Origin: Candidatus Kuenenbacteria bacterium
GTDB lineage: Bacteria > Patescibacteriota > Patescibacteriia > UBA11705 > JABHMO01
Assembly: GCA_013202715.1 (NCBI GenBank)
Contig: JABMRF010000040.1
Span: forward strand, 4,376-68,375
Length of the DNA: 64,000 nt
Reading direction: 5' to 3'
In this document: positions 1-62,415 of the stretch, in pieces
How the letters are laid out: every line of letters starts with the position of its first letter
Numbering within the stretch: the stretch's first letter is position 1
Position numbers and translations under genes: made by a program
Notes under the pieces: generated by a model
What the model saw: only the letters and a program-made list of their open reading frames with translations
What the model was told of the DNA's origin: nothing
Database searches by the model: none

Positions 1-1213
1 CCTGAGCGCTCAGCTCGGAAAACTTCTGCTCAAGCGAATTGCCCTGAACGGTCGAATCCTTGCTACCGACATTGGAAAACTCATTGTAGAGCTCTCCGAG
101 GGTTTCGACATGAATGATCCGGTACGGATCTTCATTCGGCAGTGGGTTTTTGTCAAAGTCACCGCTCTTGATCAGCACATCCGTGGTGCTCTCGATCACT
201 TCCACGAGCATTTCATTTGACACTTCATTTGGCGCAGATACGCCGAGCCACTGCAGGCAGTTGTCCGAAAGCGTCTGCCACTTCACGCCCTGAACCATTT
301 TTTCCACTTGGGCCTTGGTCAGACCGGTCTCCTTGACCAGCTCCTGGACCAATTCCACCGGGTTGTCCCGGTAGTACTTCAGTGAGCGGAAATAATTGGA
401 CAGGTACTTTTTCGTAAGCGCTTGATTTTCGTTGTACCACTTGATATTCACAACCAGGATATCAACGATATAGCGCTCAGTCTGCTCAGTTCCCAGAATT
501 TTGACGATACCTGGAGTTGAAAGCGCCCTCGAAACCTCAGGTTCCCAGAGAACTGCAACATCCACGGTGCCAGCCAAAAGCTTTTTCAGCGCATCTTCGG
601 ACCCGTCAGTTTCTACGCGAAACCTACCCGGAGCCGGAAGAAGTTCCGGTACATTGAAGTGATCCTTGGCCAACTTCAGCAAGTGATGACTTGGCGAATA
701 CGGAGTAAATCCGACCACCACGTCTTTGCCCTGGAAATCATTGAAGCTTTTGCCAACTTTTTCCAGAGCAACAATTGCATCTCCGCCCTTCGACTCATCA
801 ATGACCATGAAGATGAGGCCAGGAAAATCGTGCACAGCGGCATTGAGAACATACGAATCCACGGTCGCGACGACCATGTCGAATTCTCCGTCTGCCAGCT
901 TTTGCATTCGCACTTTGTAGTCAAGCTCTTCCACGACAGTGATCTTGCAACCAGAATTCTTCATTTTCTTTCTCTGAACATCAGAGAAGAGAATGTAATA
1001 TCCCGGCCAGGGATCCACTGCCATGACGATTTCGTCCGTTATATCTTTCGCCGCACTTGTATTTACCTTCTCCTGCTCTTCGGCAGCTTCTTCTGCCTGC
1101 GCTGCCAGCTCTTCCTGCTCAGTAGTATGATCAGAGAACAGCCTATAGGCACCAAAAGCAAGGAGCAAGACAACGACAATCGCGCCTAATGCAATCCCTT
1201 GGCGTTTGCTCAT
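1..1213 (-). CDS. membrane-anchored periplasmic substrate-binding protein, NMT1/SsuA-like (ABC-type nitrate/sulfonate/bicarbonate family); N-terminus in window, C-terminus beyond window start
   Basis: ATG at 1213 preceded by AGGAGG 7 nt upstream; manual translation MSKRQGIALGAIVVVLLLAFGAYRL (TM anchor) then ...AVDPWPGYYILF...GGDAIVALEKV... SBP-like motifs; open to position 1 (not in ORF track because there is no stop inside the window). Confidence 0.6.
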   Translation of the reverse strand, partial: MSKRQGIALGAIVVVLLLAFGAYRLFSDHTTEQEELAAQAEEAAEEQEKVNTSAAKDITDEIVMAVDPWPGYYILFSDVQRKKMKNSGCKITVVEELDYKVRMQKLADGEFDMVVATVDSYVLNAAVHDFPGLIFMVIDESKGGDAIVALEKVGKSFNDFQGKDVVVGFTPYSPSHHLLKLAKDHFNVPELLPAPGRFRVETDGSEDALKKLLAGTVDVAVLWEPEVSRALSTPGIVKILGTEQTERYIVDILVVNIKWYNENQALTKKYLSNYFRSLKYYRDNPVELVQELVKETGLTKAQVEKMVQGVKWQTLSDNCLQWLGVSAPNEVSNEMLVEVIESTTDVLIKSGDFDKNPLPNEDPYRIIHVETLGELYNEFSNVGSKDSTVQGNSLEQKFSELSAQ

Positions 1214-1281
1214 CCGTACCTCCTTTGTTTTTGAGCGGTTAAAAAAGGGGCAAGAGCAATTGTCCTGCCCCCTTGATGTAC

Positions 1282-2088
1282 CTATTCCTCGAAATCCATG
1301 ACTTGGAAATCTTCGGATTCAGCCAAAACGCCCTTCAAGGCGCTTGCGAGCTCAGCCGGGTCGCCAGCTTCACGATAAACCAGGTCTTCCCGATTCAGAG
1401 TGTGCTGACCACCAATACAGAATCCAATCGTGTAGACCACAATCGGGGTATTGTCGGCAATGAATGAGACATGGGTGGCAAGTGGACCTACATGGTCTGC
1501 AGCACCATCGGTAACGATGACCATCGTGTACTCACCATAACCAAGCTGTCTTTCAGCCTGCGCCGTCAGTTCAGCATAGGCGCCGGCAACAGCCTCAGTC
1601 AGAGGCGTACCTCCCTCCGGGGTCATGCTGTTTGCGTGGTCCAAAAACATTTGCCTGTTTCTGGTTCCCAAAGGAACCAATACTGAATACTTGTCGTTAG
1701 TGAAAACAGGGAACTTTATCAAGCCAAGATTGGCGTCATCCGGAACGTGCTTCACAAATTCCGCCAAGGCGACCTTGCCCGCATCGGACTTGGTATTTCC
1801 TCCAGAACATTTCGACTGCTCCATACTGCCGGAATTGTCCATGACCACGATGTAATTCTTGGTCAGGATGTTTTCCGCAACGTTGTCATCGGCAAGTCTG
1901 GGTGGCCAGACGAATTCCACGTCTTCCGCGGCTGACTCATCTCCACCGGCCCGCTCTACAGCGGCCTGCTTCTTCAGCTGATGCTCCTTGGCCCCGGGAA
2001 TCTTCTCCGGAACTGGATCCTTGCAACCGAGTGCGAAGAAAAAAATGAATACTGCAAAAATTGTGATGATCTTTTTCATGGTATTCAC
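1282..2088 (-). CDS. von Willebrand factor A (vWA) domain lipoprotein
   Basis: signal peptide plus lipobox FFALGC; MIDAS motif VVMDNSGSM (DxSxS); GAGGTGA RBS. Confidence 0.7.
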   Translation of the reverse strand: MNTMKKIITIFAVFIFFFALGCKDPVPEKIPGAKEHQLKKQAAVERAGGDESAAEDVEFVWPPRLADDNVAENILTKNYIVVMDNSGSMEQSKCSGGNTKSDAGKVALAEFVKHVPDDANLGLIKFPVFTNDKYSVLVPLGTRNRQMFLDHANSMTPEGGTPLTEAVAGAYAELTAQAERQLGYGEYTMVIVTDGAADHVGPLATHVSFIADNTPIVVYTIGFCIGGQHTLNREDLVYREAGDPAELASALKGVLAESEDFQVMDFEE

Positions 2089-2094
2089 CTCTCC

Positions 2095-3810
2095 CTACAG
2101 CAGTTCGAATTCAGAAGCTTCGGTTTCCACCTGAATGATCCTGAACTCGACCTTCATGTTGCTGAGCCACTCCTGCTCGCTCTTCGGAGCGCAGGGATGC
2201 GCACCGCACATGCCGCCGGCCGACTTCTCAAAGCCGTGGCCAACCACAGTGAACTGCGACTTGTCGAGCGTAATCCCCTTGGATGCTGCGTAGGCAACAA
2301 TGCTGTTGCGTACCGCATTTCCACGAGTCACACTCAGGTTTCTTGCGCCCTGCCGAATCTGCTTCAGCTTGGATGCCGGAGCACCGGCCTTCTTGGCCTT
2401 CAGGTAACCGAGCGGATCCGAGTGGCCTTCGACCACCATCACCGCGCCACCGAACGTTGACATCACATCGATTGCTTTGTCATATTCGGAAGCATACATG
2501 TTTGCCGTGAAATCGTTCTTGTTCGACTTGAAGAAAATCTTCAGCGTCGGAAAAATCTGCCCTGAAGACAGAGTTCCCTGACGCTGCTTTTGCGTTACGA
2601 CCGCAGCCAGCTTTTTCTCGTCATACTTCGGAGACTCGGCATGGTACTGCAGCTTTCCGCCGGAACGCATCACGGCATAGTCCCACTCAGCGTGCATCAG
2701 CGGGTAGGTCTTGTTCATCAGACCGAGCTCGGTAAACGCGGTCTGGATTTCGGCATTGACGTTCTGAAAGCTCCTCGCCTCGCTGGACTTGGTGAAAAAG
2801 GTTTCACTGTAAGCCAGCATGGCCGGGGTGCAGTCGAAGTACATGCCCTCAGAGTCGGCGAACGCCGCCGGATCCTCGATGATGTACTTGGCAAAAAATT
2901 TCACCGTTGCATTGTAAGTTTTCTTGTCCTTGTCCTTTCCATCGAAAACCTTGGCCATTGCTTCCTGCGCCTGAATGACGCCCTTGGCAAGCTCGAACAT
3001 CGCTGCCTTGTGAGCATTGAAATAATCGGACCGTACGACAAAGACATCGAAGATGACCTTGTCACCCGACTTGGTAGTCATCAGGATACGCGCACCCTTG
3101 CGAGTGCATTCCTGCATTTTGCACACCGTATCGGTGCCACCACCGGCCGCGCGAAGCGCGTCGGGGATGATCATGAAGGCCACATCGATCGACTTGTCCT
3201 TCTCGAATGCATCTGCCGGCGAATTTGTTCCGTACAGGTTGTCCTGCCAGACAAGAGTAACATCCTTGAATGAGAGGCCGACCGTTTTCAGAACTCGCCA
3301 CAGGAAATACAGGTGCGGACCATAGGCCTGAATGGCAATCCTCTTGCCATTCAGGTCTGCCGCGGTTTTGATACCTTCACGTACGACAATTGCGTCACCG
3401 CCCGTCGAACGGGTCAGGAGACCGGCAATCACCGGCTGAGTTCGCGGATCCTTGGCCATGATCGGCAGAGCCGCATTGACCATTCCGAGAGTTCCACGGA
3501 AGGTCGGGTTCTTGCCGGACATGTAGTCGTTCAGCATCTGCTGCGGATTGTTCTGCAGCTTGATGTTGAAACACAGGCCCAGCTTGTCGAAAATCGACCC
3601 CTTTGCGGTTCGCAGAGCATTGCCGTTACCGAAGGTAAAGGCATACTCCCCGCCCCAGGAAATCACGTGCAGGTCAATGCAACTGTTGTCAGTCACATTG
3701 CCCACCGGCGAATCCTTGAACGGCTTGAGCATCTGAGCGTTGGCAACGCCAGACCACATGAAACAAACTGCGAAAACGACTACGAGAATCTTGGCGGTGA
3801 AAGTCCTCAT
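2095..3810 (-). CDS. secreted NMT1/SsuA-like substrate-binding domain fused to C-terminal OmpA-like peptidoglycan-binding domain
   Basis: signal peptide ...GVANAQ; GGDAIVVREGI motif shared with the CDS at 1-1213; C-terminal VVEGHSDPLGYL...NLSVTRGNAVRNSIVAY resembles OmpA/MotB C-domain; AGGAGG RBS. Confidence 0.65.
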   Translation of the reverse strand: MRTFTAKILVVVFAVCFMWSGVANAQMLKPFKDSPVGNVTDNSCIDLHVISWGGEYAFTFGNGNALRTAKGSIFDKLGLCFNIKLQNNPQQMLNDYMSGKNPTFRGTLGMVNAALPIMAKDPRTQPVIAGLLTRSTGGDAIVVREGIKTAADLNGKRIAIQAYGPHLYFLWRVLKTVGLSFKDVTLVWQDNLYGTNSPADAFEKDKSIDVAFMIIPDALRAAGGGTDTVCKMQECTRKGARILMTTKSGDKVIFDVFVVRSDYFNAHKAAMFELAKGVIQAQEAMAKVFDGKDKDKKTYNATVKFFAKYIIEDPAAFADSEGMYFDCTPAMLAYSETFFTKSSEARSFQNVNAEIQTAFTELGLMNKTYPLMHAEWDYAVMRSGGKLQYHAESPKYDEKKLAAVVTQKQRQGTLSSGQIFPTLKIFFKSNKNDFTANMYASEYDKAIDVMSTFGGAVMVVEGHSDPLGYLKAKKAGAPASKLKQIRQGARNLSVTRGNAVRNSIVAYAASKGITLDKSQFTVVGHGFEKSAGGMCGAHPCAPKSEQEWLSNMKVEFRIIQVETEASEFELL

Positions 3811-4081
3811 TTTTTCCTCCTAAAGGATTGAGTTAATGGACCACCGTACTACGGAACAGGACACCGAAAAAATAACTATTAAAAAAAAGAAACAGCAAAC
3901 TTAATCTGCTCTTTTTCCTCCTTCCATATACAAATTGTCAAAAAACACAAATGAAACAATCTTAATACAAATTTAATATTTTGTCAAGTTTTTTATGTAA
4001 CTTTTTGCAAAAAAAAGCAAGCCAATTTTTCTTGACTTAATTTACTACACATAACAACACAAATACTATTTTTACGCAAGT

Positions 4082-4119: not shown

Positions 4120-5532
4120 TTACCGTTGGAACGGCCGGCAAACCTTTGCTTTCGCGCCATAGAAACTCAATCTAAACCTCTGGACAACCTTTCTTCCAGT
4201 TCCGCCAAAGGCGTCAGGCATATTCCCAAGATCGACCTTCTCTCCCATCCTGTCTGCTACCATATTTTCCTGTAACCAAAGTTTGTATTGTTCTGCTCTG
4301 CTCAACTTGTCACTTTCAAACCTTTCAAATACTCCATTAATCACACCTTGGATTGCTCCACTGATACGATCATCCAGAGCAGTCATCGTTTGGCCAATCT
4401 TGCCGGGAACACGTCCCAGCATAACCATCACAATCATGATTCCCAGAACTGCCAGAAGAGGAGAAAGGACCCACAGTAAAGCGCTGAGCATCCACCAAAG
4501 CTCTCCAGCCAAGACCAGCTTGAACAGATAGTACGCACCTACCAAAAATACGACGACACTCAAAACTTCGATTGGTGCAACACGGAGATATTTATCAGCC
4601 TCACCTTCTTTTTTACCTCGTTTCCAAAGCAAAAATTCAGGAGTACTGTCCAAGCAAACACTCCACTCTTTTTCATCTCGCTCATGCATAAAACCAAGAT
4701 ACATTTCTCTGAGCACAGGTCGCGGTCGAAAACCGCAAAACGCTGTTGCAATACTGGCCAGCAAGACATAGAGCGAGTGGAATGTGCCACCAATCAAATA
4801 GACAATGATCAAGTACCCCAGCCCCACAAACGGCTTCAGGGAATAAGCGAGCATCTTCCTCTGGCGATACACGCACTCATCGCGCGGATTTCCTGGATGC
4901 AACCAGTTTGCCCAGTCCCAAAGACGACTGGCAAACTTCGTCTTTGGCCTCTGGGCAAAAAGCTCCGTTGGCACTTCAAATTCCATCACCTTGCATGCCA
5001 GTGCGCGACCATCAAAATCGGACAAATCGCCTTCCTCAAGATTTGAAAATGAAATAGAATTTGAGCTACGTGAAAAATGATCATCACGCAGGAGATTCTC
5101 CATAAAACGTTTCGAACATCTCTTTCCATCCAGCGCAACAACTGCCAACCGGTGGTAGCCGGGTGAAAATACCTGCATGAAATGAACGACTTGCTTCAGG
5201 TCATAGAGGCTTCGCCGACCCATTGTCATTGAATGATAAACATTTTCTGTTTCGTCCTTCGTTTGTTCAATGACCAAAATATGAGTCGGAGTGTTGTCCT
5301 CATCCATCAGCCACTGCTCATCAAACCCAACCTTGATAGGAACGGTGGCGCTGTCCATCTCATTGGTACCGCCATTGAGCACAACTTTCATAGCTGAAAG
5401 CGCCACCTCACGCCGCAACTCTTCTTCCTGCCTTTCACGTTCTTCCTGCGCTTCACGTTCTTCCTGCGCTTCACGCTCCACACGCTCATTTTCCAATTGC
5501 TCAGCTGATTTCTTGGTTTTTTTCTTTGACAT
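4120..5532 (-). CDS. hypothetical protein: acidic repeat-containing N-terminal domain plus C-terminal multi-TM region
   Basis: long ORF; GGAGGAG RBS before second ATG (MSKKKTKK); 18-nt tandem DNA repeat encoding REAQEE x3; several hydrophobic helices; GC higher than genome. Confidence 0.55.
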   Translation of the reverse strand: MSKKKTKKSAEQLENERVEREAQEEREAQEERERQEEELRREVALSAMKVVLNGGTNEMDSATVPIKVGFDEQWLMDEDNTPTHILVIEQTKDETENVYHSMTMGRRSLYDLKQVVHFMQVFSPGYHRLAVVALDGKRCSKRFMENLLRDDHFSRSSNSISFSNLEEGDLSDFDGRALACKVMEFEVPTELFAQRPKTKFASRLWDWANWLHPGNPRDECVYRQRKMLAYSLKPFVGLGYLIIVYLIGGTFHSLYVLLASIATAFCGFRPRPVLREMYLGFMHERDEKEWSVCLDSTPEFLLWKRGKKEGEADKYLRVAPIEVLSVVVFLVGAYYLFKLVLAGELWWMLSALLWVLSPLLAVLGIMIVMVMLGRVPGKIGQTMTALDDRISGAIQGVINGVFERFESDKLSRAEQYKLWLQENMVADRMGEKVDLGNMPDAFGGTGRKVVQRFRLSFYGAKAKVCRPFQR

Positions 5533-5750
5533 TTGCTCCTCCATGTTGAGCGAAAAAGTTTAACGAAGTCAACCCAATACTTATCTAATTGTAAGGTTCA
5601 GAACTAACATATCATGATAACAAACTTTTTTCAATTTGTCAACCTTCGAGAACCCTTCGATAAACTCAGGACAGGCCTCAGGTTGACACAAAAAATACTT
5701 ATTTTACGCAAAAAGAAAGGATTTCACTCCCCTCTTTTTATATAATTTGC

Positions 5751-7604
5751 TTATTCTAAAATAGCTTTAATCCTTCTCACACCTGCTGAGCTGGATTCTT
5801 CTTTTTTGATTCGGAACTTACCAAGCTCTCCAGTTTTTTGGGCATGCGGTCCGCCACACATTTCACAAGACACGTTTCCAATTGTGAAAACTTTTGCAAC
5901 GTGACCATACTTGTCTTCAAACAATCCAATTGCTCCTTTTTTCTTCGCATCATCAACTGCCATTTCCGCACAGCCAACTTCAAGATCATCTTTGATCCAA
6001 CCATTAACTAATTCTTCAACTTCTTTTTTTTGTTCGTCAGTCATTTTATCTAGATGTGTAAAATCAAATCGCAATCGGTCAGCGGTAATATTGCTACCCT
6101 TTTGCAGTGCATGAGGGCCAAGAACTTTTTGTAATGCGGCCTGGAGTAAGTGAGTTGCTGTGTGAAGTTTACAAGTTTCTTCCGATGCGTCAGCCAGTCC
6201 GCCTTTGAATCTTTGACCAGCGCCTTCTCGCGAAAGAGCCTGATGTTTTTCAAACTCAGCATCAAATTCTTTTTTGTCAAATTTAATTCCTTTTTCTTCT
6301 GCCAACTCTTCGGTCATTTCATATGGAAAACCATAAGTTGAAAACAAATCAAACGCTTCAGTTCCGGAAATATTATTGTCCTTGGACATTTTTTTGAACT
6401 CACGCAATCCTTTTTCCAGAGTTGTGGCAAATTTTTCTTCTTCTTTTGTTAATTGTTTCAAAATAAAATCTTTATTCTTCTTGAGTTCAGGATAAGTGTC
6501 CTGCATTATTTTAATAACAACTTCGGCAACCTTGTGAGTAAACACGCCTTCAATTCCAATTTGCTTGCCGTGCCTGATTGCTCTTCTAATTAAACGTCGC
6601 AAAATATATCCCTGGTCAACATTTGACGGTTCAATCCCCTTTTCATCACCAAGAATAAAAGTGGCAGCGCGAACGTGATCTACTATTACTCGAATTGATT
6701 TTTTTTCTTTTTCATAATTTGGATCATCTTTTTTTCCGTAAATGTCTGTATTGTCTACTCCTTCTTGACCAAGATATTTATATTTTCGGAGCATGTTAAC
6801 TTCTGCCACAATCGGTTCAATGTGCGGGCAATGATAATTATCAGGAAAGTCATTCAAAACTGAAACTGTTCTTTCCAATCCCATACCCGTATCCACGTTC
6901 CTCTGCTTCGCTTTTACATATTCATATTCTACTTTATCTGATTGGCTCTTGACTTTTGACTCTTGACTCTTGACTTTATTATATTCCATAAATACGTCGT
7001 TCCAAATCTCAACGTATTTACCACAACTGCAACTTGGCTGGCAGTCTTTGCCGCAAGCTTTTTTATCGGAAATATAAAACATTTCTGAGTCCGGTCCGCA
7101 TGGTCCTGTTTTTCCAGCCGGGCCCCACCAGTTTTCTTTTTTATTATATTTATAAATACGATCCTCGGGCATGCCAAGAGATTTCCAAGTATTGTAACTT
7201 TCTTCGTCAAAGGGAGCATCGTCGTCACCTTTAAAAACGGTCACAGCCAATCTGTCCAAAGGAATATCCAAAACATTTGTTAAAAATTCATAGCTCATTT
7301 CAATTGCTTCTTTCTTCCAGTAGTCGCCAAGTGACCAATTGCCCAGCATTTCAAAACAAGTAAAATGCCATTGATCTCCGACATCATCAATATCGCCAGT
7401 TCGAATACATTTTTGGAAATCAACCAATCGCGTTCCGGCTGGATGCTTTTCGCCCAATAAATATGGGACAAGAGGATGCATTCCGGCAGTTGTAAAAAGA
7501 CAGGTTGGATCATTTTCTGGAATCAAAGAAGCAGAAGGGATTATGGCGTGGCCCTTGTCTTTGAAAAAATTTAGGAATTTTTCACGAAGTTCGTGTGCGT
7601 GCAT
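5751..7604 (-). CDS. alaS: alanyl-tRNA synthetase (short form with catalytic and editing domains, no C-Ala domain)
   Basis: N-terminal class II AlaRS motifs (FTTAGMHPLVPY, WHFTCFEML), editing HxxxH...CGGPH; 617 aa. Confidence 0.85.
   Translation of the reverse strand: MHAHELREKFLNFFKDKGHAIIPSASLIPENDPTCLFTTAGMHPLVPYLLGEKHPAGTRLVDFQKCIRTGDIDDVGDQWHFTCFEMLGNWSLGDYWKKEAIEMSYEFLTNVLDIPLDRLAVTVFKGDDDAPFDEESYNTWKSLGMPEDRIYKYNKKENWWGPAGKTGPCGPDSEMFYISDKKACGKDCQPSCSCGKYVEIWNDVFMEYNKVKSQESKVKSQSDKVEYEYVKAKQRNVDTGMGLERTVSVLNDFPDNYHCPHIEPIVAEVNMLRKYKYLGQEGVDNTDIYGKKDDPNYEKEKKSIRVIVDHVRAATFILGDEKGIEPSNVDQGYILRRLIRRAIRHGKQIGIEGVFTHKVAEVVIKIMQDTYPELKKNKDFILKQLTKEEEKFATTLEKGLREFKKMSKDNNISGTEAFDLFSTYGFPYEMTEELAEEKGIKFDKKEFDAEFEKHQALSREGAGQRFKGGLADASEETCKLHTATHLLQAALQKVLGPHALQKGSNITADRLRFDFTHLDKMTDEQKKEVEELVNGWIKDDLEVGCAEMAVDDAKKKGAIGLFEDKYGHVAKVFTIGNVSCEMCGGPHAQKTGELGKFRIKKEESSSAGVRRIKAILE
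6946..6976. repeat. AGTCNNN heptamer tandem array inside alaS (in-frame, encodes KSQESKVKSQ-like insertion)
   Basis: ctcttgacttttgactcttgactcttgactt seen directly. Confidence 0.8.
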
Positions 7605-7611
7605 AGAGTTA

Positions 7612-7688
7612 AGTCTTGAGTCTAGAGTCTAGAGTCAATAGTCGGTAAAATAACTCTAGACTTTTGACTCTTGACTTTTGACTTGTAG
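7612..7688. repeat. two inverted arrays of AGTCNNN/TCTAGAC-type heptamers upstream of alaS
   Basis: agtcttgagtctagagtctagagtcaatagtc ... ctctagacttttgactcttgacttttgacttg. Confidence 0.8.
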
Positions 7689-7775
7689 TTTATGCTTCCA
7701 TAATAACCAAATTTAACCGAATTTGCAACCTCAATATTAACATTTATGTAAATTGAGACCAGAACCCAACAGCCA

Positions 7776-9293: not shown

Positions 9294-10400
9294 TTATTCA
9301 ATTTCACCGCCCCCTAAACATTCATCTCCATTATAAAAAACACAATACTGGCCGGAGGTAATGGCTCGCTGGGGTTTTGGAAATTTCACCAGAAATTTGT
9401 TTGAAGAACGATTGTCAGGCGAACTTCCGGAAGTTCGCCTGACAATCTGACAATTTACATTTTCAGATCGATATCGGATTCGGCATTCGCATTTAAATGG
9501 CAATGTTGGAGCCGTGCCGGAAATCCAATTAACTTTTTTAACTATTAATTCTTTGGCTAAAATATCATCTTCGTTTTTACTCACCCAGAGGGTATTATTT
9601 TTTTTATCCAATCGAGAAACATACCACGGACCATCGGCAAGGCCAATCCCCTTTCTTTGCCCAATTGTGTACATTGGTAAACCGTCATGCTGGCCAAGGA
9701 TTTTACTGTCAGGCGCGACGCCTTCTCGAATAGGCCCTTTTTCAAATTTGATATATCTTTTCAAAAATTCACCCACCTTTCCATCCGCTACAAAACAAAT
9801 TTCCTGTGATTCTTTTTTGCTGGCAGTTGACAGTCCATGTTTCTTGGCCAATTTTCGAACTTGTTCTTTTGTATAATTTCCAACTGGGAACATAACATGA
9901 GCCAGATCCTTTTGCTTGATCTGATGAAGGAAATATGACTGGTCTTTGTTTTTGTCCCGTCCCACGCGTAGGGAACGGTCGCGACCGTTCCCTACGCGAG
10001 CGAAATGCCCGGTCGCGACAAAATCAACGCCCATTGGTTTTAATTTTTTCCACAACTCACCAAATTTGATATATTGATTGCAACGCACACATGGATTTGG
10101 TGTACGACCACACTCATATTCATTAACAAAATTATCTACAATTTTTTCCTTGAACGGAGCCTTCATATCAATCACATAAAACGGAATTCCGAGCTTATTG
10201 CAAACCCGGCGGGCATCTTCTGCAGATTCCAGCGAACAGCAAATGTTTTCACGAATTTTGCCCTTGATATTCTCATTCCAGAATTTCATAAAAACACCAA
10301 TGACTTCATAGCCTTGTTCTTTTAATAATACTGCGGCAACTGACGAATCCACTCCGCCGGACATGCCGACGGCCACCTTTAATTGTTTGTTTTTATTCAT
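9294..10400 (-). CDS. mnmA: tRNA-specific 2-thiouridylase MnmA
   Basis: PP-loop VGMSGGVDSS, ...NPCVRCN..., ...KDQSYFL; TATAAT 6 nt upstream of ATG and no SD. Confidence 0.9.
   Translation of the reverse strand: MNKNKQLKVAVGMSGGVDSSVAAVLLKEQGYEVIGVFMKFWNENIKGKIRENICCSLESAEDARRVCNKLGIPFYVIDMKAPFKEKIVDNFVNEYECGRTPNPCVRCNQYIKFGELWKKLKPMGVDFVATGHFARVGNGRDRSLRVGRDKNKDQSYFLHQIKQKDLAHVMFPVGNYTKEQVRKLAKKHGLSTASKKESQEICFVADGKVGEFLKRYIKFEKGPIREGVAPDSKILGQHDGLPMYTIGQRKGIGLADGPWYVSRLDKKNNTLWVSKNEDDILAKELIVKKVNWISGTAPTLPFKCECRIRYRSENVNCQIVRRTSGSSPDNRSSNKFLVKFPKPQRAITSGQYCVFYNGDECLGGGEIE
9965..9998. repeat. 34-bp perfect GC-rich palindrome inside the mnmA coding sequence
   Basis: cgcgtagggaacggtcg|cgaccgttccctacgcg; reverse complement identical. 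Confidence 0.9.
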
Positions 10401-10450
10401 AAATTCATTATATCAAAAAAAACGCCTTTTGCGTCTTTTTTTATATCATA

Positions 10451-10816
10451 CTATCCAGCTTTCTTCAAGGTCACCATCACCTCCGGCACATATTTGTTAT
10501 CTTTGTCATCAACAACTTCAACTTTATTATTTTTCATCAGCTCATTCCACATTAGATCTGACAAAACTTGCTTGGTGTCTTTTATATCCATTTTCAAATC
10601 ATCCAAGTCGTTGAATTCAGAGGCATAATCTCCTCGAATCGCGACTTCAATTTGTTTTTTCTTAGCTTTCAAGGAATTCATTTCATCTAAAATATCCTGA
10701 TATTCTTTTGTCTGGTCATAAGCTTCCTTGACAACTACTTTGATTTCTTTTTGTTTAGCTTTTGCATCCTGGATTTCCAAGTGCAAATCTGTAATTCTTT
10801 GTGCATTGTCGGACAT
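10451..10816 (-). CDS. hypothetical coiled-coil protein (121 aa)
   Basis: charged, heptad-like composition. Confidence 0.5.
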   Translation of the reverse strand: MSDNAQRITDLHLEIQDAKAKQKEIKVVVKEAYDQTKEYQDILDEMNSLKAKKKQIEVAIRGDYASEFNDLDDLKMDIKDTKQVLSDLMWNELMKNNKVEVVDDKDNKYVPEVMVTLKKAG

Positions 10817-54409: not shown

Positions 54410-55504
54410 CTATTCAAAATCCTCTAAAAGTTTCCTCTGCTTCCGACTAAGTTTTTTCGGCACCGCCACTTCAATAACAACATACATATCGCCTCGAGTG
54501 GAACCGTGAAGCTGCGGCATGCCTTTTCCTTTCAACCTAAACTTGGTCCCGGGCTGAGTTCCTGCTGGAATTTTCAAACTAACTTCAGATTCAAGAGTTC
54601 CCACATCAATCTCGCCACCGAGCGCAGCCTCAACAAATGAAATATTATTCTGCATGTAAATATCTTTTCCATGACGCTGAAAAACTTTATCAGATCTAAT
54701 CCGGACACGCACATAAAGATCTCCAGCTTCGCCTCCAAATGGAGCAGCATTTCCTTTTCCGGTCAGGCGAAGGGTAGAGCCATCTTCGATTCCAGCTGGA
54801 ATTTCAATATTAATTTTTTCTTTTTTCTTGGTAACTCCCTGGCCTGAACATTTGGAACACGGGGTTTCTGCTTTTTTTCCACTACCGTGACAATCTGTGC
54901 AAGTTGAACTGCTTTGAAATGCGCCGAGCATCGTTTGCTGAACTCGAGTGACACGTCCCTGACCATTGCAGGTCGAGCAAGCATTGATAGGAGTTCCAGG
55001 TTCCGCCATATTACCGTGACAATGTTCACATTTTACAGTTTTATACAATTCAACTTCTTTTTTGATTCCATTAATAACATCTTTTAATCCAATTTCAAAA
55101 TCAACCTGAATATCTTCGCCACCGCCTCGGCTTCGCCCATTTCTTCCACCGCCAAAACCAAACATGTCGCCAAATATATCGCCAAGGTCAAGTCCGCCGA
55201 AGTCAAACTTTGCTCCGTTTGCACCGCCACCTCCGCCTCTAGCTTGGCTCATAAAATCGCTCCAGTTCATCCCCCCACCAAATCCACCCATTTGGTCAAA
55301 TGAAGATCCAAACTGGTCATACTGTTTTCGTTTTTCCGGCTTGCCAAGGACCTGGTAGGCCTCATTAATTTCTTTAAACTTAGCTTCATCACCAGTTTCT
55401 TTGTCAGGATGGTACTTATGAGCCAGTTTACGAAAAGCACGCTTGATCTCGTCTTGATCAGCGCCTTTTTCTACGTTTAATATTTTATAATAATCTTTAG
55501 ACAT
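54410..55504 (-). CDS. dnaJ: chaperone DnaJ
   Basis: J-domain HPD (KYHPDK), G/F-rich region, four CxxCxGxG zinc-finger repeats. Confidence 0.9.
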   Translation of the reverse strand: MSKDYYKILNVEKGADQDEIKRAFRKLAHKYHPDKETGDEAKFKEINEAYQVLGKPEKRKQYDQFGSSFDQMGGFGGGMNWSDFMSQARGGGGGANGAKFDFGGLDLGDIFGDMFGFGGGRNGRSRGGGEDIQVDFEIGLKDVINGIKKEVELYKTVKCEHCHGNMAEPGTPINACSTCNGQGRVTRVQQTMLGAFQSSSTCTDCHGSGKKAETPCSKCSGQGVTKKKEKINIEIPAGIEDGSTLRLTGKGNAAPFGGEAGDLYVRVRIRSDKVFQRHGKDIYMQNNISFVEAALGGEIDVGTLESEVSLKIPAGTQPGTKFRLKGKGMPQLHGSTRGDMYVVIEVAVPKKLSRKQRKLLEDFE

Positions 55505-55557: not shown

Positions 55558-55983
55558 CTACGATTTAAAATTATTGTATTCTTTTAATTGAGCGACAACT
55601 TCACTGTCTGTTATATGAAAATCAGAACGATCATCTTCATCTACTTGAGGAGCTGTCGGAACTTCAAAATTATATTCCTCAACTTTTATTGTTTTGATCT
55701 TTTTTTGTCTGGCGAGATATCGTAATTCTTTGTCAGATGAGACAAGAACATAATATGAAGGATTATCGCACGTTTTGATTATTTCAGCAATACGCTCGTC
55801 CGCATCACCCGCGAATTCGACCTGAACAAATTCTGTGTTCAAGTCTTCCTCAGAGTAGCCATCAAAGATGATTTTTGCACTCTTTTTACAGTAAACAAAA
55901 AATGTGTTCAGAGCAGAAAGCAATTGTTCTCTAGTCTCAAATTCAGTTGCATATAGTAGGTTGTAGCCGTCGATGAGGTACAT
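55558..55983 (-). CDS. YacP/NYN-domain ribonuclease-like protein
   Basis: MYLIDGYNLLY N-terminus typical of YacP (Rae1) family. Confidence 0.65.
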   Translation of the reverse strand: MYLIDGYNLLYATEFETREQLLSALNTFFVYCKKSAKIIFDGYSEEDLNTEFVQVEFAGDADERIAEIIKTCDNPSYYVLVSSDKELRYLARQKKIKTIKVEEYNFEVPTAPQVDEDDRSDFHITDSEVVAQLKEYNNFKS

Positions 55984-56079
55984 AAATGAATACTGATGAT
56001 ACTGATATACTGATTAAGAGAAATTTGATTTAGGATAACAATAAATTACGTAAAATTAGCAAAAACCGTTACCAACCTA

Positions 56080-56108
56080 TTGACTTTTATTTAAATATAT
56101 GCTATAAT
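56080..56108 (+). promoter_or_regulatory. consensus promoter TTGACT-17-tgcTATAAT
   Basis: TTGACT 56080-56085, TATAAT 56103-56108 with TGn. Confidence 0.7.
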
Positions 56109-56153
56109 ACAACAATCGAACAAAAATGAGATGAACCTTAATAATCTACTTTC

Positions 56154-56217
56154 GGCAGCTATGCCAGGGACGTATGTGCCCATAATAGCAAAGGACAAAA
56201 CATGAATCTGATCAACA
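56154..56217 (+). repeat. duplicated 5' block, copy 1 (leader plus first codons MNLINK)
   Basis: ggcagctatgccagggacgtatgtgcccataatagcaaaggac...ATGaatctgatca identical to 56539-56602. Confidence 0.9.
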
Positions 56218-56456
56218 AGGCCTGGAACGTGACCGTGACCTACAACACCAAGCTGGCAATCAGCTGGGGCGTTTTCGCCCTGTTCCTCATCTGTGCCTCG
56301 ATCTGCATCCCGCCTGCGATCGCTCTGATCGAGGAGGGAGTGTATCACTCGAGGAGCTTCGTCACCGAAACGGTATTCGCCTACACCGCCACGGCGGGGT
56401 TGGTCAGCACCTTCGCCGATTGGCGCTACAAGCTCATCTTCTTCAATCGCAGCTAG
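56202..56456 (+). CDS. small 2-TM membrane protein (84 aa), GC-rich
   Basis: ATG 56202 after AAGGA; two hydrophobic helices; GC about 58%. Confidence 0.55.
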   Translation: MNLINKAWNVTVTYNTKLAISWGVFALFLICASICIPPAIALIEEGVYHSRSFVTETVFAYTATAGLVSTFADWRYKLIFFNRS

Positions 56457-56538
56457 GGACATCATCACGCTCGTGATCAGATGATTCCCCCGTCCATTCC
56501 TGCCATTCGGAAAAGACTCAAATCACAATTTAATCTGG

Positions 56539-56602
56539 GGCAGCTATGCCAGGGACGTATGTGCCCATAATAGCAAAGGACCAAAAATGAATCTGATCAG
56601 CA
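56539..56602 (+). repeat. duplicated 5' block, copy 2 (leader plus first codons MNLISK)
   Basis: 43-nt perfect identity to copy 1 plus identical first 13 coding nt. Confidence 0.9.
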
Positions 56603-57156
56603 AAGTCTGGGACAGGACCTTCAAGATGGCAGTCGTGTTTTGCTTGGTGTTGTTCGCGATCGCGATCACCGGCTGCGATTTCGGAGGAGACGATACTCCG
56701 GAAGAAACCACCATGGAAGCGACACAGTCGCAAGGAGAAGTGCTCGAGGAAACGGTAGTCTCGGAAACAGAGCTCTATGTGTCCGTCATGGGATGCTTCC
56801 CGGTGCCCCAGTCGGACTTCGAGAACGGCATCAAGCCGGACTGGACCGGTACGATTTCCTACATCACACCCAATCCCGAAATGACGAGTACAAAAGTCAT
56901 CACGATCACCGACATTCCGGTAACCCTGGGAGGATGCTTCGTCACCCTCTACGTGCCACTGAAGGACATCGAACTCGGGTTCTGGATCAACACCTCCGAG
57001 GGGTGGGAGAACTCCCAAAGCCCCTATCTTGCAGAGGTCCGATTCCTCACGACCACTTACGGTCAAGAGGGCAATCAGATCGAAACTCGAAAGGTCAATA
57101 TCGGAGAAGAAGAATCTGCCGGCTTCCCTATCTGGGATGCCAACACCTACCAGTAA
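56587..57156 (+). CDS. lipoprotein (189 aa), GC-rich
   Basis: signal peptide plus lipobox AITGC; terminator downstream. Confidence 0.6.
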   Translation: MNLISKVWDRTFKMAVVFCLVLFAIAITGCDFGGDDTPEETTMEATQSQGEVLEETVVSETELYVSVMGCFPVPQSDFENGIKPDWTGTISYITPNPEMTSTKVITITDIPVTLGGCFVTLYVPLKDIELGFWINTSEGWENSQSPYLAEVRFLTTTYGQEGNQIETRKVNIGEEESAGFPIWDANTYQ

Positions 57157-57185
57157 GCCCACACTTGGGCATACTTCAGACATCA

Positions 57186-57225
57186 AAGGGCTCAACCTTA
57201 TCTCAGGTTGGGCTCTTTTTCTTTT
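57186..57225. terminator. bidirectional terminator (for the 56587 gene and dnaK)
   Basis: gggctcaacct-tatctc-aggttgggct then ctttttcttttt. Confidence 0.6.
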
Positions 57226-57229
57226 TAAA

Positions 57230-59161
57230 TTATTTCTTTTCTTCGAAGTCAGCATCCTGCGTATTCGAATCATCATCAGCTTTTTTTTCTTCAGTTTCAT
57301 TACTATCGCCTTTATCTCCTGTTTCCCCTGCTTCTCCTGTCTTCCCTTGTTCCGCCGCCTGTGCCTTGTACATTTCTTCCCCAGCCTTCATCGCAATCTT
57401 ATTAATCTCTTCCAATTTCGCTTTGATCGCTTCTGTATCTTCTCCGTCTTTAATTTTTTTAAGCTCTTCGACTTTTTCAGTTAGATCTTTTTTGATATCT
57501 TCTGAAATTTTATCACCGGACTCTTTCATCATTTTTTCTGTTGTATAACAAACTGAATCAGCCTGATTTTTAATTTCAATCGCGTCTTTCTTTTTCTTGT
57601 CTTCATCAGCATGTTCCTCAGCATCCTTTTTCATTTTTTCAATTTCTTCTTTACTTAAACCGGACGAAGCGGTAATTGTAATTGCCTGTTCTTTATTGGT
57701 AGCTTTATCTTTGGCTTTAACGTTCATAATACCGTTGGCATCAATATCAAAACTAACCTCAACTTGCGGTACGCCGCGTGGCGCTGGTGGAATTCCGTCA
57801 AGAATAAAACGACCCAAGGTTTTGTTTCCCTCAGACATCTCACGCTCACCCTGAAGCACGTGAATTTCAACTGTGTTCTGATTATCAGCTGCAGTTGAAA
57901 AGACTTGTGACTTTGAAGCTGGGATAGTCGTATTTTTTTCAATAAGTTTTGTCATCACACCACCCAGAGTTTCAATTCCGACTGAAAGTGGAGTTACGTC
58001 AAGTAATAGAACGTCTTTAACATCACCCTGTAAAACACCGGCTTGAACTGCGGCGCCGGAAGCAACAACTTCGTCAGGATTAACGCCAACGTGCGGTTTT
58101 TTTCCGAAGAATTCTTCCACTTTTTTTAATACCAATGGCATACGGGTCATTCCCCCAACCATGATAATTTCCTCAATATCTTCAACTTTGAATCCAGCAT
58201 CAGCTAAAGCTTTTTTACATGGTTCAAGTGTTTTATCAACTAAAGGAGTAACTAATTCTTCAAGTTTTGCCCGAGTCATTTTTTTAACTAAATGAACAGG
58301 ATTACCTGAAGGATCCTGAGCAACAAACGGTTGATTAATTTCAGTTTCCTGCGCAGTTGATAATTCAATCTTTGCTTTTTCCGCAGCTTCTTTAACTCGC
58401 TGTAAAGCCATTTGATCTCCACTTAAGTCGACACCGGTTTCAGTTTTAAATTCTTTAATTATCCAGTCGATGATTACTTTATCAAAATCATCACCACCAA
58501 GATGGGTATCGCCATTAGTGGATTTAACTTCAACGGTATCTTCGCCAACATCTAAAATTGAAATATCAAAAGTACCGCCACCCAAATCATAAACTGCGAT
58601 CTGTTCCCCTTTTTTCTTATCAAATCCGTAAGCTAGGGCCGCAGCAGTTGGTTCATTAATAATTCGACGAACTTTTAGTCCGGCAATTTCACCGGCATCT
58701 TTTGTGGCTTGTCTTTGTGCATCGTTAAAATAGGCTGGCACAGTAATTACAACTTCATCAATTTTCTCACCAATTTTTTCTTCCGCATCTGCTTTCATTT
58801 TTTGAAGTAGCATTGCTGAAATCTCTTGCGGAGTATATTCTTTATCCGCCATTTTGACTTTGACGCCATCACCTGATTCAACCAATTCATAAGGTAATGT
58901 TTCTTTGTCTTTTTGAACTTCGTCATCTGAATAACTGAGCCCAATCAATCTTTTGATTGAAAAAACTGTGTCTTTTGGATTAGTTACTGCTTGCCGCTTT
59001 GCAGGCAATCCTACCAATCGCTCACCGGTCTTGCCAATCGCAATTACTGACGGAGTTGTTCGGCTCCCCTCTTTATTTTCTAAAATTTTTGGCTTCCCTC
59101 CCTCAACAATTGCCATGCAACTGTTTGTTGTTCCTAAATCAATCCCGAGTATCTTTGACAT
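57230..59161 (-). CDS. dnaK: chaperone DnaK (Hsp70)
   Basis: [19 protein letters not shown], full Hsp70 architecture. Confidence 0.95.
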
Positions 59162-60693: not shown

Positions 60694-60740
60694 ATCATTT
60701 TAACACACCTCTTAGCACTCGTCAAGAGGGACTGCCAGTT
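60694..60740 (-). promoter_or_regulatory. hrcA promoter (TTGACG-17-TAAAAT, 8 nt before ATG) overlapping a partial CIRCE-like inverted repeat
   Basis: TTAGCACTC-N9-GACTGCCAG on plus strand (left half perfect CIRCE, right half 6/9). Confidence 0.5.
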
Positions 60741-60801: not shown

Positions 60802-61200
60802 CTAAAACAATCTAGGAAACTGAGCGTCTGTGCAGTCCAGACCTTCATCAATGAGTCCATCGCAGTCATTGTCGTAAAGGTCACCACAAATCTCAACCCC
60901 ACCATTTGACTCTGTCTTGCAGGAATACTCTCCACATCCCGGAATGGAATCATAAGTGAGCGGATCGCCGTCCAAATCAACCAGCCAAGACGGACACTCC
61001 CCCTCCGCCACCTCAGCACCGGGAACTTCTGCTTGAGCGCCCTGTTCCTTCTTGAGTGCTTCAACAGTTTTTTCCAGCACTTCAATTCGCGCCAGCATAG
61101 CCTCGTCTGCTTCCGTCCTTTTTTGAATACCATACCCCAAACACGCAAACCCGAAAGCTACAGCCACACACAGAAACGTAACTCTTCTATTTAGACTCAT
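60802..61200 (-). CDS. secreted Cys/Asp-rich protein with putative metal-binding repeat
   Basis: signal peptide; DLDGDPLTYDSIPGCGEY...CGDLYDNDCDGLIDEGLDC; GC about 52%. Confidence 0.55.
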   Translation of the reverse strand: MSLNRRVTFLCVAVAFGFACLGYGIQKRTEADEAMLARIEVLEKTVEALKKEQGAQAEVPGAEVAEGECPSWLVDLDGDPLTYDSIPGCGEYSCKTESNGGVEICGDLYDNDCDGLIDEGLDCTDAQFPRLF

Positions 61201-61242
61201 GTGCTCCTCCTTTTCAGTTTAAGTTATACTATTCCACTTTAC

Positions 61243-62223
61243 TCACTGTTCATTCATACTCATCATCTGTTCACGCCAAACAATCTTGGCGGACTTGGGA
61301 ACAAAGTGAAGTGTACCACTCGGGCAAACCACACCAGTTCCGGAGACCGGGATTGTATAACGAACCAAATATTCATCGTCAGTTTCACCGATCAACTCCA
61401 GCTCCCCTCGTCTATCTTGCATACACCGACGAGAGTATTCAAAGCTGATGTTGCCGTTGAAAATCTTTTCCGGATTCACAACGGTCACGTATTGCCAATG
61501 AAACGAATCCGCTACCGGCCCAGGGATTCCCCAACTCTGATATCGTTCCATCAAACTGGCGACCAATTGCTTTCGCTCTTTTTCCTGTTCTTCTTCCAGG
61601 AGGAAGCGAGCAATGTCGTCCGCTGCCATAAACGTACGAGTTCCCGTAGGGCAATCATCGCTGTAAGCCTCTTCGGGCGCTGTGTACTCCACGTAGTAAG
61701 TACCCTCATAGGAAAGTCGAACTCTCAACTCTCCATGACGATTGAAGCCGCACCTGTCCCGAAACACGAATTCGCGATTGCAATTACTCAGAATCTCCAG
61801 GTTGGCTATCACAGTTCTCTCCCAATGAGTCAAACGAATTGGGGCGCTGGGCTCGATTTCGTCGATGATTTTGTCCAGATCAGCAATCAGTTCAATCTCA
61901 ACGTCTGATCGCATCCTCGATTGAGCAACCTGCTCTTTAGAAGGTTGCTCGACAACTTCCGGCTGAACTGCCTGATCATTATAAACAATGTTATTTATCT
62001 GGTGAACAAGCTGGTTCATTCCATAAACATACAGAACCAAACTGGCTTCTGCTACAAACTTGAACTCCTGGTCATACTCACCTTGCTCACAAACGGACTC
62101 AGTTTCTCCTGCTACAAAATCTTGACTCTGAGCATTCTCATAGCCAAAAAGTCCATAGCTCAGAAGGCACACAGCAACGCAAATCAAGACAATCCCGCTC
62201 GCAATTTGAAGTGCTTTCTTCAT
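61243..62223 (-). CDS. secreted hypothetical protein with internal duplication
   Basis: GGAGG RBS; signal peptide; two related segments (R.RCG..R.GEL...Y.V.YT.P...CPTGT). Confidence 0.55.
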   Translation of the reverse strand: MKKALQIASGIVLICVAVCLLSYGLFGYENAQSQDFVAGETESVCEQGEYDQEFKFVAEASLVLYVYGMNQLVHQINNIVYNDQAVQPEVVEQPSKEQVAQSRMRSDVEIELIADLDKIIDEIEPSAPIRLTHWERTVIANLEILSNCNREFVFRDRCGFNRHGELRVRLSYEGTYYVEYTAPEEAYSDDCPTGTRTFMAADDIARFLLEEEQEKERKQLVASLMERYQSWGIPGPVADSFHWQYVTVVNPEKIFNGNISFEYSRRCMQDRRGELELIGETDDEYLVRYTIPVSGTGVVCPSGTLHFVPKSAKIVWREQMMSMNEQ

Positions 62224-62415
62224 GATAATCCTCCGTAAGAGTTTATTGTCAATTTACACTATAACAGAAGATTATAGCACTCATTTATAAAAAAGTCAAG
62301 TTTCAAAGGAGAAAATGACAACAAATTATTTAAATTTACATAAAAAAGAAGCTCATCACCTCGTTTTTATTTACTTACCCTAGATTGAATTGATGATTTT
62401 TATATTTAACAAAAA

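Follow-up and report, generated by a model that had tools for sequence, protein, structure and literature searches.

Short hairpins placed near the Shine-Dalgarno (SD) sequence form a familiar class of cis-regulatory elements, which includes ribosomal-protein operators, phage coat-protein or RegA-type operators, and 5' stabilisers of the ompA/aprE type. Another well-known arrangement is that of the variable lipoprotein families of the Mycoplasma vlp/vsp type, in which a 5' untranslated region and a signal-peptide block are conserved. The locus described here lies in a stretch of 64,000 nucleotides (nt), hereafter the window, from Candidatus Kuenenbacteria bacterium (GenBank assembly GCA_013202715.1, contig JABMRF010000040.1, positions 4,376 to 68,375). 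It is a small operon within the heat-shock locus, in which a leader of about 45 nt stands before each of two open reading frames (ORFs), one for a protein of 84 amino acids (aa; ORF84) and one for a lipoprotein of 189 aa. We consider it probable, with some reserve, that the leader is a cistron-specific cis-acting RNA element in an operon that evolves fast and encodes orphan envelope proteins; it would work as an operator of translation and/or as a signal for 5' stabilisation or processing. It would be a new candidate within a known class, that of structured 5' leaders.

With the regulatory hairpins named above, the leader shares a short conserved stem-loop at a fixed SD-proximal site, an invariant lower stem and internal loop, and a covarying upper stem. 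It is likewise repeated on several cistrons, which would then be co-regulated. Unlike them, it belongs to no Rfam family, leaves the SD unoccluded in the predicted folds and is known from one operon in three lineages. The resemblance to the Mycoplasma families lies in a surface-protein locus with a conserved 5' non-coding region and first codons on otherwise unrelated coding sequences. However, there is one lipoprotein gene here, with two to three leader copies in place of a large family, the sharing of N-terminal codons is confined to the window lineage, and neither a homopolymer tract nor an invertible promoter was seen that could serve as a phase-variation device. A further comparison is suggested by the neighbouring gene yacP. 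In Bacillus subtilis, the small-peptide operon yrzI (spyTA) is controlled by the YacP-family RNase Rae1, which acts at stalled ribosomes inside ORFs and not at a leader hairpin (PMC12067863, PMC10351889, PMC12407103). Both operons are polycistronic with very small ORFs, and the present one is divergent from a Rae1-family gene, but no sequence similarity between them was found. The adjacency may be incidental and is a lead only, since yacP adjoins dnaJ also in a more distant relative that lacks the operon.

The repeat itself is unambiguous. The 43-mer GGCAGCTATGCCAGGGACGTATGTGCCCATAATAGCAAAGGAC has exactly two occurrences in the window (56154-56196 and 56539-56581) and none in 100 dinucleotide-preserving shuffles. 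The direct repeat reaches 81 nt at 90% identity (56154-56234 / 56539-56619) and takes in the first 11 codons of both ORFs (MNLINKAWNVT and MNLISKVWDRT). The original prediction, made from the letters of the window, had described this duplicated block together with a promoter, a terminator, a lipoprotein gene and a position between yacP/dnaJ and dnaK on the opposite strand, and all of these stand. Its statement that the two downstream proteins are unrelated also holds, as the body of ORF84 lacks colinear similarity to that of the lipoprotein. A tandem duplication of the whole gene was accordingly rejected (local score 27 against 19.2 +/- 2.4 in shuffles, not in register).

Leader copies, which follow the pattern GGCAGCUAUGCC-N15-20-AAUAGCA-GGA, number two in the window and, in the relatives described below, two in the lineage of contigs L001 and L014 and three in L004, each before a different protein. 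A covariance model built on these seven copies scores them at 63-79 bits and finds nothing else above 15 bits, either in the window or in related loci totalling about 70 kb; no leader follows the lipoprotein gene or the 229-aa gene of L014. An exact 24-mer of the leader is absent from 185,579 species genomes and from IMG/VR, and it has one match in the JGI metagenomes, namely L001. A degenerate gapped pattern likewise found nothing in IMG/VR, and the metagenome, genome, viral, plasmid and phage collections showed no leader copy or protein of the operon in a different setting. Rfam 15 gave no match at gathering score in the window or the related loci; with E up to 10 on 55950-57300 there were four noise matches of 10-18 bits, against gathering scores of 40-60, and none of them fell on the leader hairpin. 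Guanidine-II, preQ1-I, hammerhead-like cores, a CRISPR I-F repeat, the CIRCE/HrcA operator, a sigma-54 promoter and a sigma-70 internal promoter were each ruled out by eye on spacing or missing conserved nucleotides. Literature searches on the motif sequence and on Kuenenbacteria returned nothing relevant.

The relatives give the leader its evolutionary context. L001 (Ga0233437_1000021, a JGI metagenome contig of 448 kb), the sole contig matched by the 24-mer, is syntenic with the window through cysS, a 387-aa gene, a 172-aa gene, dnaJ, yacP and the operon. There, the same promoter is followed by a leader variant with a 31-aa transmembrane (TM) peptide (orf31) and by a window-type leader with a lipoprotein of 182 aa, 50% identical to that of the window. 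Two further contigs, L014 and L015, are of the L001 lineage (NCBI label Falkowbacteria, HN643_00535, GCA_018665965.1). This lineage has deep coverage: the L014 type was found in 66 index blocks of the contig collection, and 23 of its contigs were read. In L014, leader-orf31 and leader-lipoprotein are followed by the gene of a 229-aa TM protein that has no leader, then by the terminator, a minus-strand GIY-YIG gene and dnaK. The 229-aa orphan gene (6562-7251, plus strand; GC fraction at third codon positions, GC3, 0.54) starts 13 nt past the lipoprotein stop, and the small GIY-YIG nuclease gene occupies 7404-7733 (minus strand). When the two lipoproteins were used as a profile query, one further lineage came up (P0003, P0004; contigs L003-L010), in which L004 reads yacP, promoter, leader-orf75 (75 aa), leader-orf31, leader-lipoprotein (181 aa), terminator, orf72, dnaK. 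Here, orf72 is an AT-rich 72-aa TM gene with its own promoter (TTGACA-17-TATACT) and a copy of the operon terminator hairpin on either side (1590-1630 and 1935-1975), which suggests insertion by recombination at the terminator.

The operon, with an orthologous lipoprotein and the same promoter and terminator, thus occupies the yacP-dnaK position in all three lineages found, a small group of Patescibacteria labelled Kuenenbacteria or Falkowbacteria at NCBI. Lipoprotein orthologues are known from only two lineages besides that of the window, and an exhaustive hidden Markov model search of 1.84 billion representatives added no other. The more distant L002 (Falkowbacteria UBA11705; YacP 44% identical) has neither operon nor leader; it carries, all on one strand, dnaK, a 176-aa ORF (5353-5883), yacP, a 200-aa ORF (6426-7028) and dnaJ.

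Between the window and L001, DNA identity is 73% in yacP, 69% in dnaJ, 72.5% in cysS and 61% in the lipoprotein coding sequence, with third codon positions 41-59% identical. The leader is 90% identical over 51 nt, and its core, which includes the loop of the lipoprotein-type hairpin, is identical at 38 of 38 nt. The leader is therefore the most constrained sequence of the locus, which excludes a neutral duplication. The original prediction had named a simple local tandem duplication, occurring only here, as an outcome that would speak against it; the leader in fact also precedes different ORFs in the two other lineages.

From 5' to 3', the seven-copy alignment runs through a U-rich tract, GGCA, GCUAU, GCC, a variable hairpin, A(U/A)A, AUAGC, A, (A)(A)GGA, 5-8 nt and AUG. 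RNAalifold places an invariant outer stem, P1 (GCUAU:AUAGC), around an inner helix, P2, and P1 pairs in 7/7 copies. The 3x3 internal loop between them (GCC / A(U/A)A) is invariant. P2 is variable, with 3-4 base pairs (bp) and a loop of 7-9 nt, and two of its pairs are altered on both sides (C-G/U-A and G-C/A-U). Paired cells make up 87% on this structure, compared with 27-65% in slid registers, and the covariation score of the leader was reached by none of 500 shuffles. Spacing is also preserved: P1 ends 1-3 nt before the GGA of the SD and 9-12 nt before the AUG in all copies. The length of the helix differs by 1 nt between variants, which suits an RNA better than a DNA site of fixed spacing. 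The 5' hairpin GGCA-GCUA-UGCC is an alternative that is equally compatible with all copies, and the single variant in the 5' GGCA (C to U, giving GGUA) retains a G.U pair, which is possible on plus-strand RNA only. Covariation-backed structure and a fixed position relative to the start, as in structured cis-regulatory leaders, are thus both present, on the thin basis of 5-6 distinct sequences.

Several observations weigh against an RNA element of this kind. P1 and the GGCA-GCUA-UGCC hairpin are both invariant and mutually exclusive, and the data do not choose between the folds. Folding stability is no better than that of shuffles (z-scores from -1.0 to +0.6). The predicted folds do not sequester the SD, so that no on/off mechanism is visible. 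The few distinct sequences come from three lineages, and the covariation rests on two base pairs. Finally, the leaderless 229-aa gene of L014 indicates that the leader is not needed by every cistron. In detail, the SD is unpaired in the minimum free energy or centroid folds of 5/7 contexts, and an SD-pairing competitor helix occurs only in the lipoprotein mRNAs of L001 and L004. In these (L001 12940-13000, L004 990-1050), a helix between the SD region AAUAGCAAGGAA and codons 7-12 (CCCUUCUCAUUGCUGUU) can form in competition with P1. Such pairing could act as a switch and is not conserved in the window. An RNA thermometer of the ROSE or fourU type was considered and set aside, as the SD is unpaired in five of the seven contexts.

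The same leaders could also be read as DNA. Each might be a recombination site that folds as a single-strand hairpin, with leader and ORF forming a cassette in a miniature integron-like platform behind one promoter and the high GC coming from a foreign pool. As in integrons, one promoter precedes short ORFs that each carry an imperfect hairpin site and vary between relatives. L001 and L004 differ by exactly one unit, a probable relic of the 3' end of orf75 lies behind ORF84, and ORF84, with a GC3 of 0.86, is unique to the window lineage; the conserved outer stem, unpaired spacer and variable top further recall attC architecture. Yet the genes within about 6 kb include no integrase or other recombinase in any of the lineages, and the leader alignment lacks the R''/R' cores of attC (RYYYAAC / GTTRRRY). 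The leader measures 31-45 nt against 57-141 nt for attC and sits 5' of the ORF, abutting the SD, with no site past the last ORF, a fixed position for which recombination does not account. Moreover, no cassettes were found elsewhere in the collections searched, and homologous recombination between 45-nt repeats suffices for the loss of units with no dedicated system. We regard such a platform as unlikely. A broader version, in which the leader is both the recombination and the expression signal of a new gene-capture platform of the candidate phyla radiation (CPR), recombinase-independent or trans-encoded, and GC-rich ORFs such as ORF84 were taken in by leader-to-leader exchange, would account for ORF turnover and foreign codon usage alike; we hold it to be quite unlikely. 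A different reading places the function in an upstream ORF (uORF) that begins at the AUG in GCUAUGCC (MPG.../MPR...), whose translation would open the hairpin and couple termination to reinitiation at the main start. That AUG is invariant in 7/7 copies, both window copies run 14 codons to a TGA overlapping the main ATG (ATGA), a classical coupling arrangement, and in the leader variants Vb-Vd the stop falls after 6-7 codons, just 5' of the SD. On the other hand, no SD lies upstream of the AUG, which is itself taken up by P1 or the alternative hairpin. In the lipoprotein leaders of L001 and L004, the same frame stays open for 42 and 31 codons and enters the gene out of frame, so that there is no conserved position of the stop. 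Conservation of the peptide is limited to MP(G/R), and coding leaves the compensatory stem changes unaccounted for, which makes this reading, too, quite improbable.

If each leader were an internal promoter or operator in DNA, the genes would be transcribed separately, with the NA(T/A)AAT hexamer as a -10 box or the inverted repeats as a repressor site. Such a hexamer is present in every copy (CATAAT, AATAAT, GATAAT, GAAAAT; A2 and T6 conserved), and the locus lies within an HrcA-type heat-shock region. Nevertheless, there is no -35 box at 16-18 nt (best match 1/6), the promoter scan gives the upstream promoter only, and a start about 7 nt downstream would fall in or just 5' of the SD and leave essentially no 5' leader. 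The spacing of the half-sites also varies between 21 and 22 nt, and a promoter does not need the compensatory stem changes; we consider this very unlikely. Least credible, and highly improbable in our view, is a recently acquired foreign island in which the repeat is a neutral, functionless local duplication. Its appeal lies in the composition (GC 53-57% against 40%, GC3 0.70-0.86 against about 0.3), in the orphan proteins and in the absence of the operon from L002. The lipoprotein orthologue, promoter, terminator and leaders nevertheless occupy one and the same site in lineages whose housekeeping genes agree at about 70% of DNA positions, and a non-coding core identical at 38/38 positions beside coding sequence at 61% is incompatible with neutrality. 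The borders show no mobility genes, flanking repeats or tRNA, and no donor homologues were found. For the lipoprotein and the leader, this reading is already largely refuted. The horizontally acquired module of the original prediction survives in part: the composition does look foreign, but the site is shared by three lineages, with no mobility genes, flanking repeats or tRNA at the borders and no donor found. Its leader and N-terminus recombined onto different ORFs are likewise only partly true, in that the upstream gene of the window bears a copied leader with 11 codons and L001 and L004 are one unit apart. What is favoured is the alternative that it had offered, a conserved cis-RNA element before each gene, on account of the different ORFs in three lineages, the top conservation, the covarying stem and the fixed SD distance.

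According to the cis-acting RNA reading, a strongly promoted, terminator-bounded operon would express lineage-restricted small membrane peptides and a lipoprotein from a variable slot between yacP/dnaJ and dnaK. Each upstream cistron is preceded by the modular leader of about 45 nt, which would act in the mRNA as a cistron-autonomous element and set translation initiation and/or transcript stability. The leader is probably a common binding site of a putative trans-acting factor that would co-regulate the cistrons. Recombination between leader copies would, in addition, explain the gain and loss of whole leader-ORF units between lineages.

Traces of such turnover can be seen. The lipoprotein-type leader (Va) precedes the lipoprotein gene in all lineages, and variants Vb-Vd stand before the upstream ORFs of L001 and L004. 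The window has Va before both genes, with the shared block running on for 11 codons; the lipoproteins of L001 and L004 begin MKLINALL... and do not have the 10-residue extension found in the window. Between the window copies, the coding part shows 8 differences in 38 nt and the 43-nt core none. The simplest history, judging from these sequences, is that, in the window lineage, duplication or gene conversion placed a copy of the lipoprotein leader and first 11 codons at the front of the upstream gene, which would have produced the 81-nt repeat. L001 and L004, 84-87% identical, are exactly one leader-orf75 unit apart, and three different ORF sets stand behind the same promoter: ORF84 and lipoprotein; orf31, lipoprotein and the 229-aa gene; orf75, orf31 and lipoprotein. 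The relic behind ORF84 was found by a local blastn search (19/21 nt, E=0.003) and is weak evidence; together with the one-unit difference, it indicates that the leader repeats mediate the turnover of units.

Both ORFs of the window are true genes. GC1/GC2/GC3 are 0.41/0.44/0.86 in ORF84 and 0.49/0.41/0.70 in the lipoprotein gene, with G3 and C3 both raised, compared with a GC3 of 0.28-0.35 in yacP, dnaK, dnaJ and grpE. This strong 3-periodicity in GC shows that both frames are coding, with a codon usage foreign to the genome. ORFs of 125, 256 and 302 aa in alternative frames are also present, and long chance ORFs are expected in a GC-rich stretch. After its lipobox, the lipoprotein has an acidic linker, a beta-rich domain, conserved Cys70 and Cys117, and the C-terminus GFPIWDANTY. 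ORF84 had been predicted to span the membrane twice; it has one strong hydrophobic segment (about residues 16-47), and the second lies below the Kyte-Doolittle threshold of 1.6.

A protein database of 5.8 billion clusters returned only self-matches for the two products (NQT49940.1 and NQT49941.1, 'Candidatus Kuenenbacteria bacterium'), and Pfam, PHROG, NCBIfam, PADLOC and PDB sequences gave none above signal-peptide or lipobox-level noise. ORF84 has no homologue in any search and is unique to the window lineage. An AlphaFold2 model had a mean pLDDT (predicted local distance difference test) of 42, which is too low for a meaningful fold search, and blastn against plasmid and phage collections found no match to the locus. 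The suggested likeness to polymorphic toxin/immunity systems was not upheld, as no toxin, immunity or defence domain was detected with Pfam, NCBIfam, PHROG and PADLOC in the proteins of 31-229 aa.

The coordinates of the features in the window are collected in Table 1.

Table 1. Features of the leader-bearing operon and its neighbours (window coordinates)
Feature	Position	Strand	Remarks
Leader copy 1	56154-56201	+	Covariance-model match 56146-56207, 76.8 bits; GGCA; P1 5' GCUAU 56158-56162; internal loop GCC; inner hairpin GGG 56167-56169 pairs with CCC 56179-56181; P1 3' AUAGC 56185-56189; SD AGGA 56192-56195; ORF84 ATG at 56202
Leader copy 2	56539-56586	+	Covariance-model match 56531-56592, 72.2 bits; P1 56543-56547 / 56570-56574; SD 56577-56580; lipoprotein ATG at 56587
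Mini-uORF in leader 1	56161-56205	+	MPGTYVPIIAKDKT, then stop; TGA overlaps ORF84 ATG (ATGA); possibly incidental; end not conserved in relatives
Mini-uORF in leader 2	56546-56590	+	MPGTYVPIIAKDQK, then stop; TGA overlaps lipoprotein ATG; read from sequence
ORF84 (84 aa)	56202-56456	+	Orphan small membrane protein; first 11 codons common to lipoprotein gene
Probable relic, 3' end of orf75-like gene	56459-56483	+	..IITLVIR-stop, compared with ..IITLVVI-stop in L004; out of frame with ORF84
Lipoprotein gene (189 aa)	56587-57156	+	Lipobox ITGC at residues 27-30
Operon promoter	56080-56108	+	TTGACT-17 nt-(TGC)TATAAT; promoter scan 11/12 match, TG upstream
Intrinsic terminator	57185-57218 or 57185-57228	+	14-bp stem and T-run; 2 nt from dnaK stop codon
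yacP	55558-55983	-	NYN_YacP domain; NYN-domain RNase, Rae1 family; divergent from operon
dnaJ	54410-55504	-	Beyond yacP on the promoter side of the operon
dnaK	57230-59161	-	Convergent with operon

The operon thus lies on the strand opposite to all three flanking genes of the heat-shock locus. Its promoter is kept in the relatives as TTGACTTTTTATTAAAAATATGCTATAAT, and its terminator is conserved as well. Within about 6 kb of it, the genes across the lineages are those for Dus, CysS, two hypothetical proteins, DnaJ, YacP, the GIY-YIG protein, DnaK, GrpE and HrcA. Two independent assemblies, JGI 3300032737 (L012) and Logan SRR28106066 (L013), are base-identical to the window over the 3' end of ORF84, the leader, the lipoprotein gene and the 3' end of dnaK, so the arrangement is not a chimeric assembly or artefact. 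The source metagenomes include JGI 3300032737, Ga0233437, SRR28106059/66 and ERZ2479464x. Short-read assemblies of the same population stop inside or beside the leader (L013 1-60, starting within the leader; L012). Repeated leaders may therefore break up the locus in many metagenome assemblies and hide more relatives.

The composition of the operon poses a problem of its own. A GC content of about 58% against a genomic 37% had been predicted; the measured values are 53.4% over 56154-57156 (ORF84 56.9%, lipoprotein gene 53.5%) and 40% for the window. Every gene from promoter to terminator has a raised GC3, 0.70-0.86 in the window and 0.47-0.57 in L001, L004 and L014, the 229-aa gene included; in the flanking genes and the separately promoted orf72 it is 0.21-0.32. 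Vertical conservation at this position with normal GC, another outcome that had been named as contrary, is therefore not what the relatives show, since the operon is at the same site in them but its GC3 is raised. Synteny marks the lipoprotein genes as orthologues, and their synonymous sites approach saturation. The compositional trace of one ancient transfer should consequently have faded, and no donor family was found among the protein clusters, the 1.84 billion representatives, the plasmids or the phages searched. This points to some persistent force that holds GC3 high in this transcription unit and not to a simple recent transfer; selection on the mRNA and biased gene conversion in a recombining locus are candidates. 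ORF84, with the highest GC3 and no relative, may be a more recent arrival.

Comparable composition was noticed elsewhere. Upstream of hrcA, a second GC-elevated two-gene unit (60802-62296, minus strand; 326 aa and 132 aa) has N-terminal hydrophobic segments in both proteins, a weak MopE-like Cys motif in the 132-aa protein and no leader motif, and is driven by TTGACTTTTTTATAAATGAGTGCTATAAT, which is near-identical to the operon promoter. Also upstream of hrcA (60712-60738, minus strand), CTGGCAGTC-N9-GAGTGCTAA has a right half that is a perfect CIRCE half-site and a left half matching at 6/9, and overlaps a TTGAC -35 box; from its sequence, this is likely a degenerate HrcA operator. A larger island of 50-53% GC (GC3 0.57-0.69) occupies positions 1-4000 of the window, with genes for a VWA lipoprotein (1282-2088, minus strand) and a 571-aa protein (2095-3810, minus strand), and runs on in contig L011 with OmpA-domain and TelA genes. 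Together with the operon, it indicates that the genome holds several GC3-rich islands of envelope proteins. L002 has an island of its own (9600-10500, 58-66% GC), in which a 244-aa ORF lies beside a same-strand 188-aa ORF, possibly related by eye. Islands of high GC are thus a repeated feature of these AT-rich genomes, also in one that lacks the operon.

To our knowledge, the regulatory RNAs of CPR/Patescibacteria are almost unexplored. The significance of the present leader is modest, as it is a candidate known from three lineages only. Within that scope, it offers a compact and concrete candidate regulatory RNA of about 45 nt, with clear boundaries and the highest conservation of its locus. 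The operon also presents an evolutionary puzzle, being vertically retained while its GC3 stays at two- to threefold the genomic value in lineages near synonymous saturation. Furthermore, the leader is linked to orphan proteins exposed at the surface, which may plausibly take part in the contact between cells on which these episymbionts depend.

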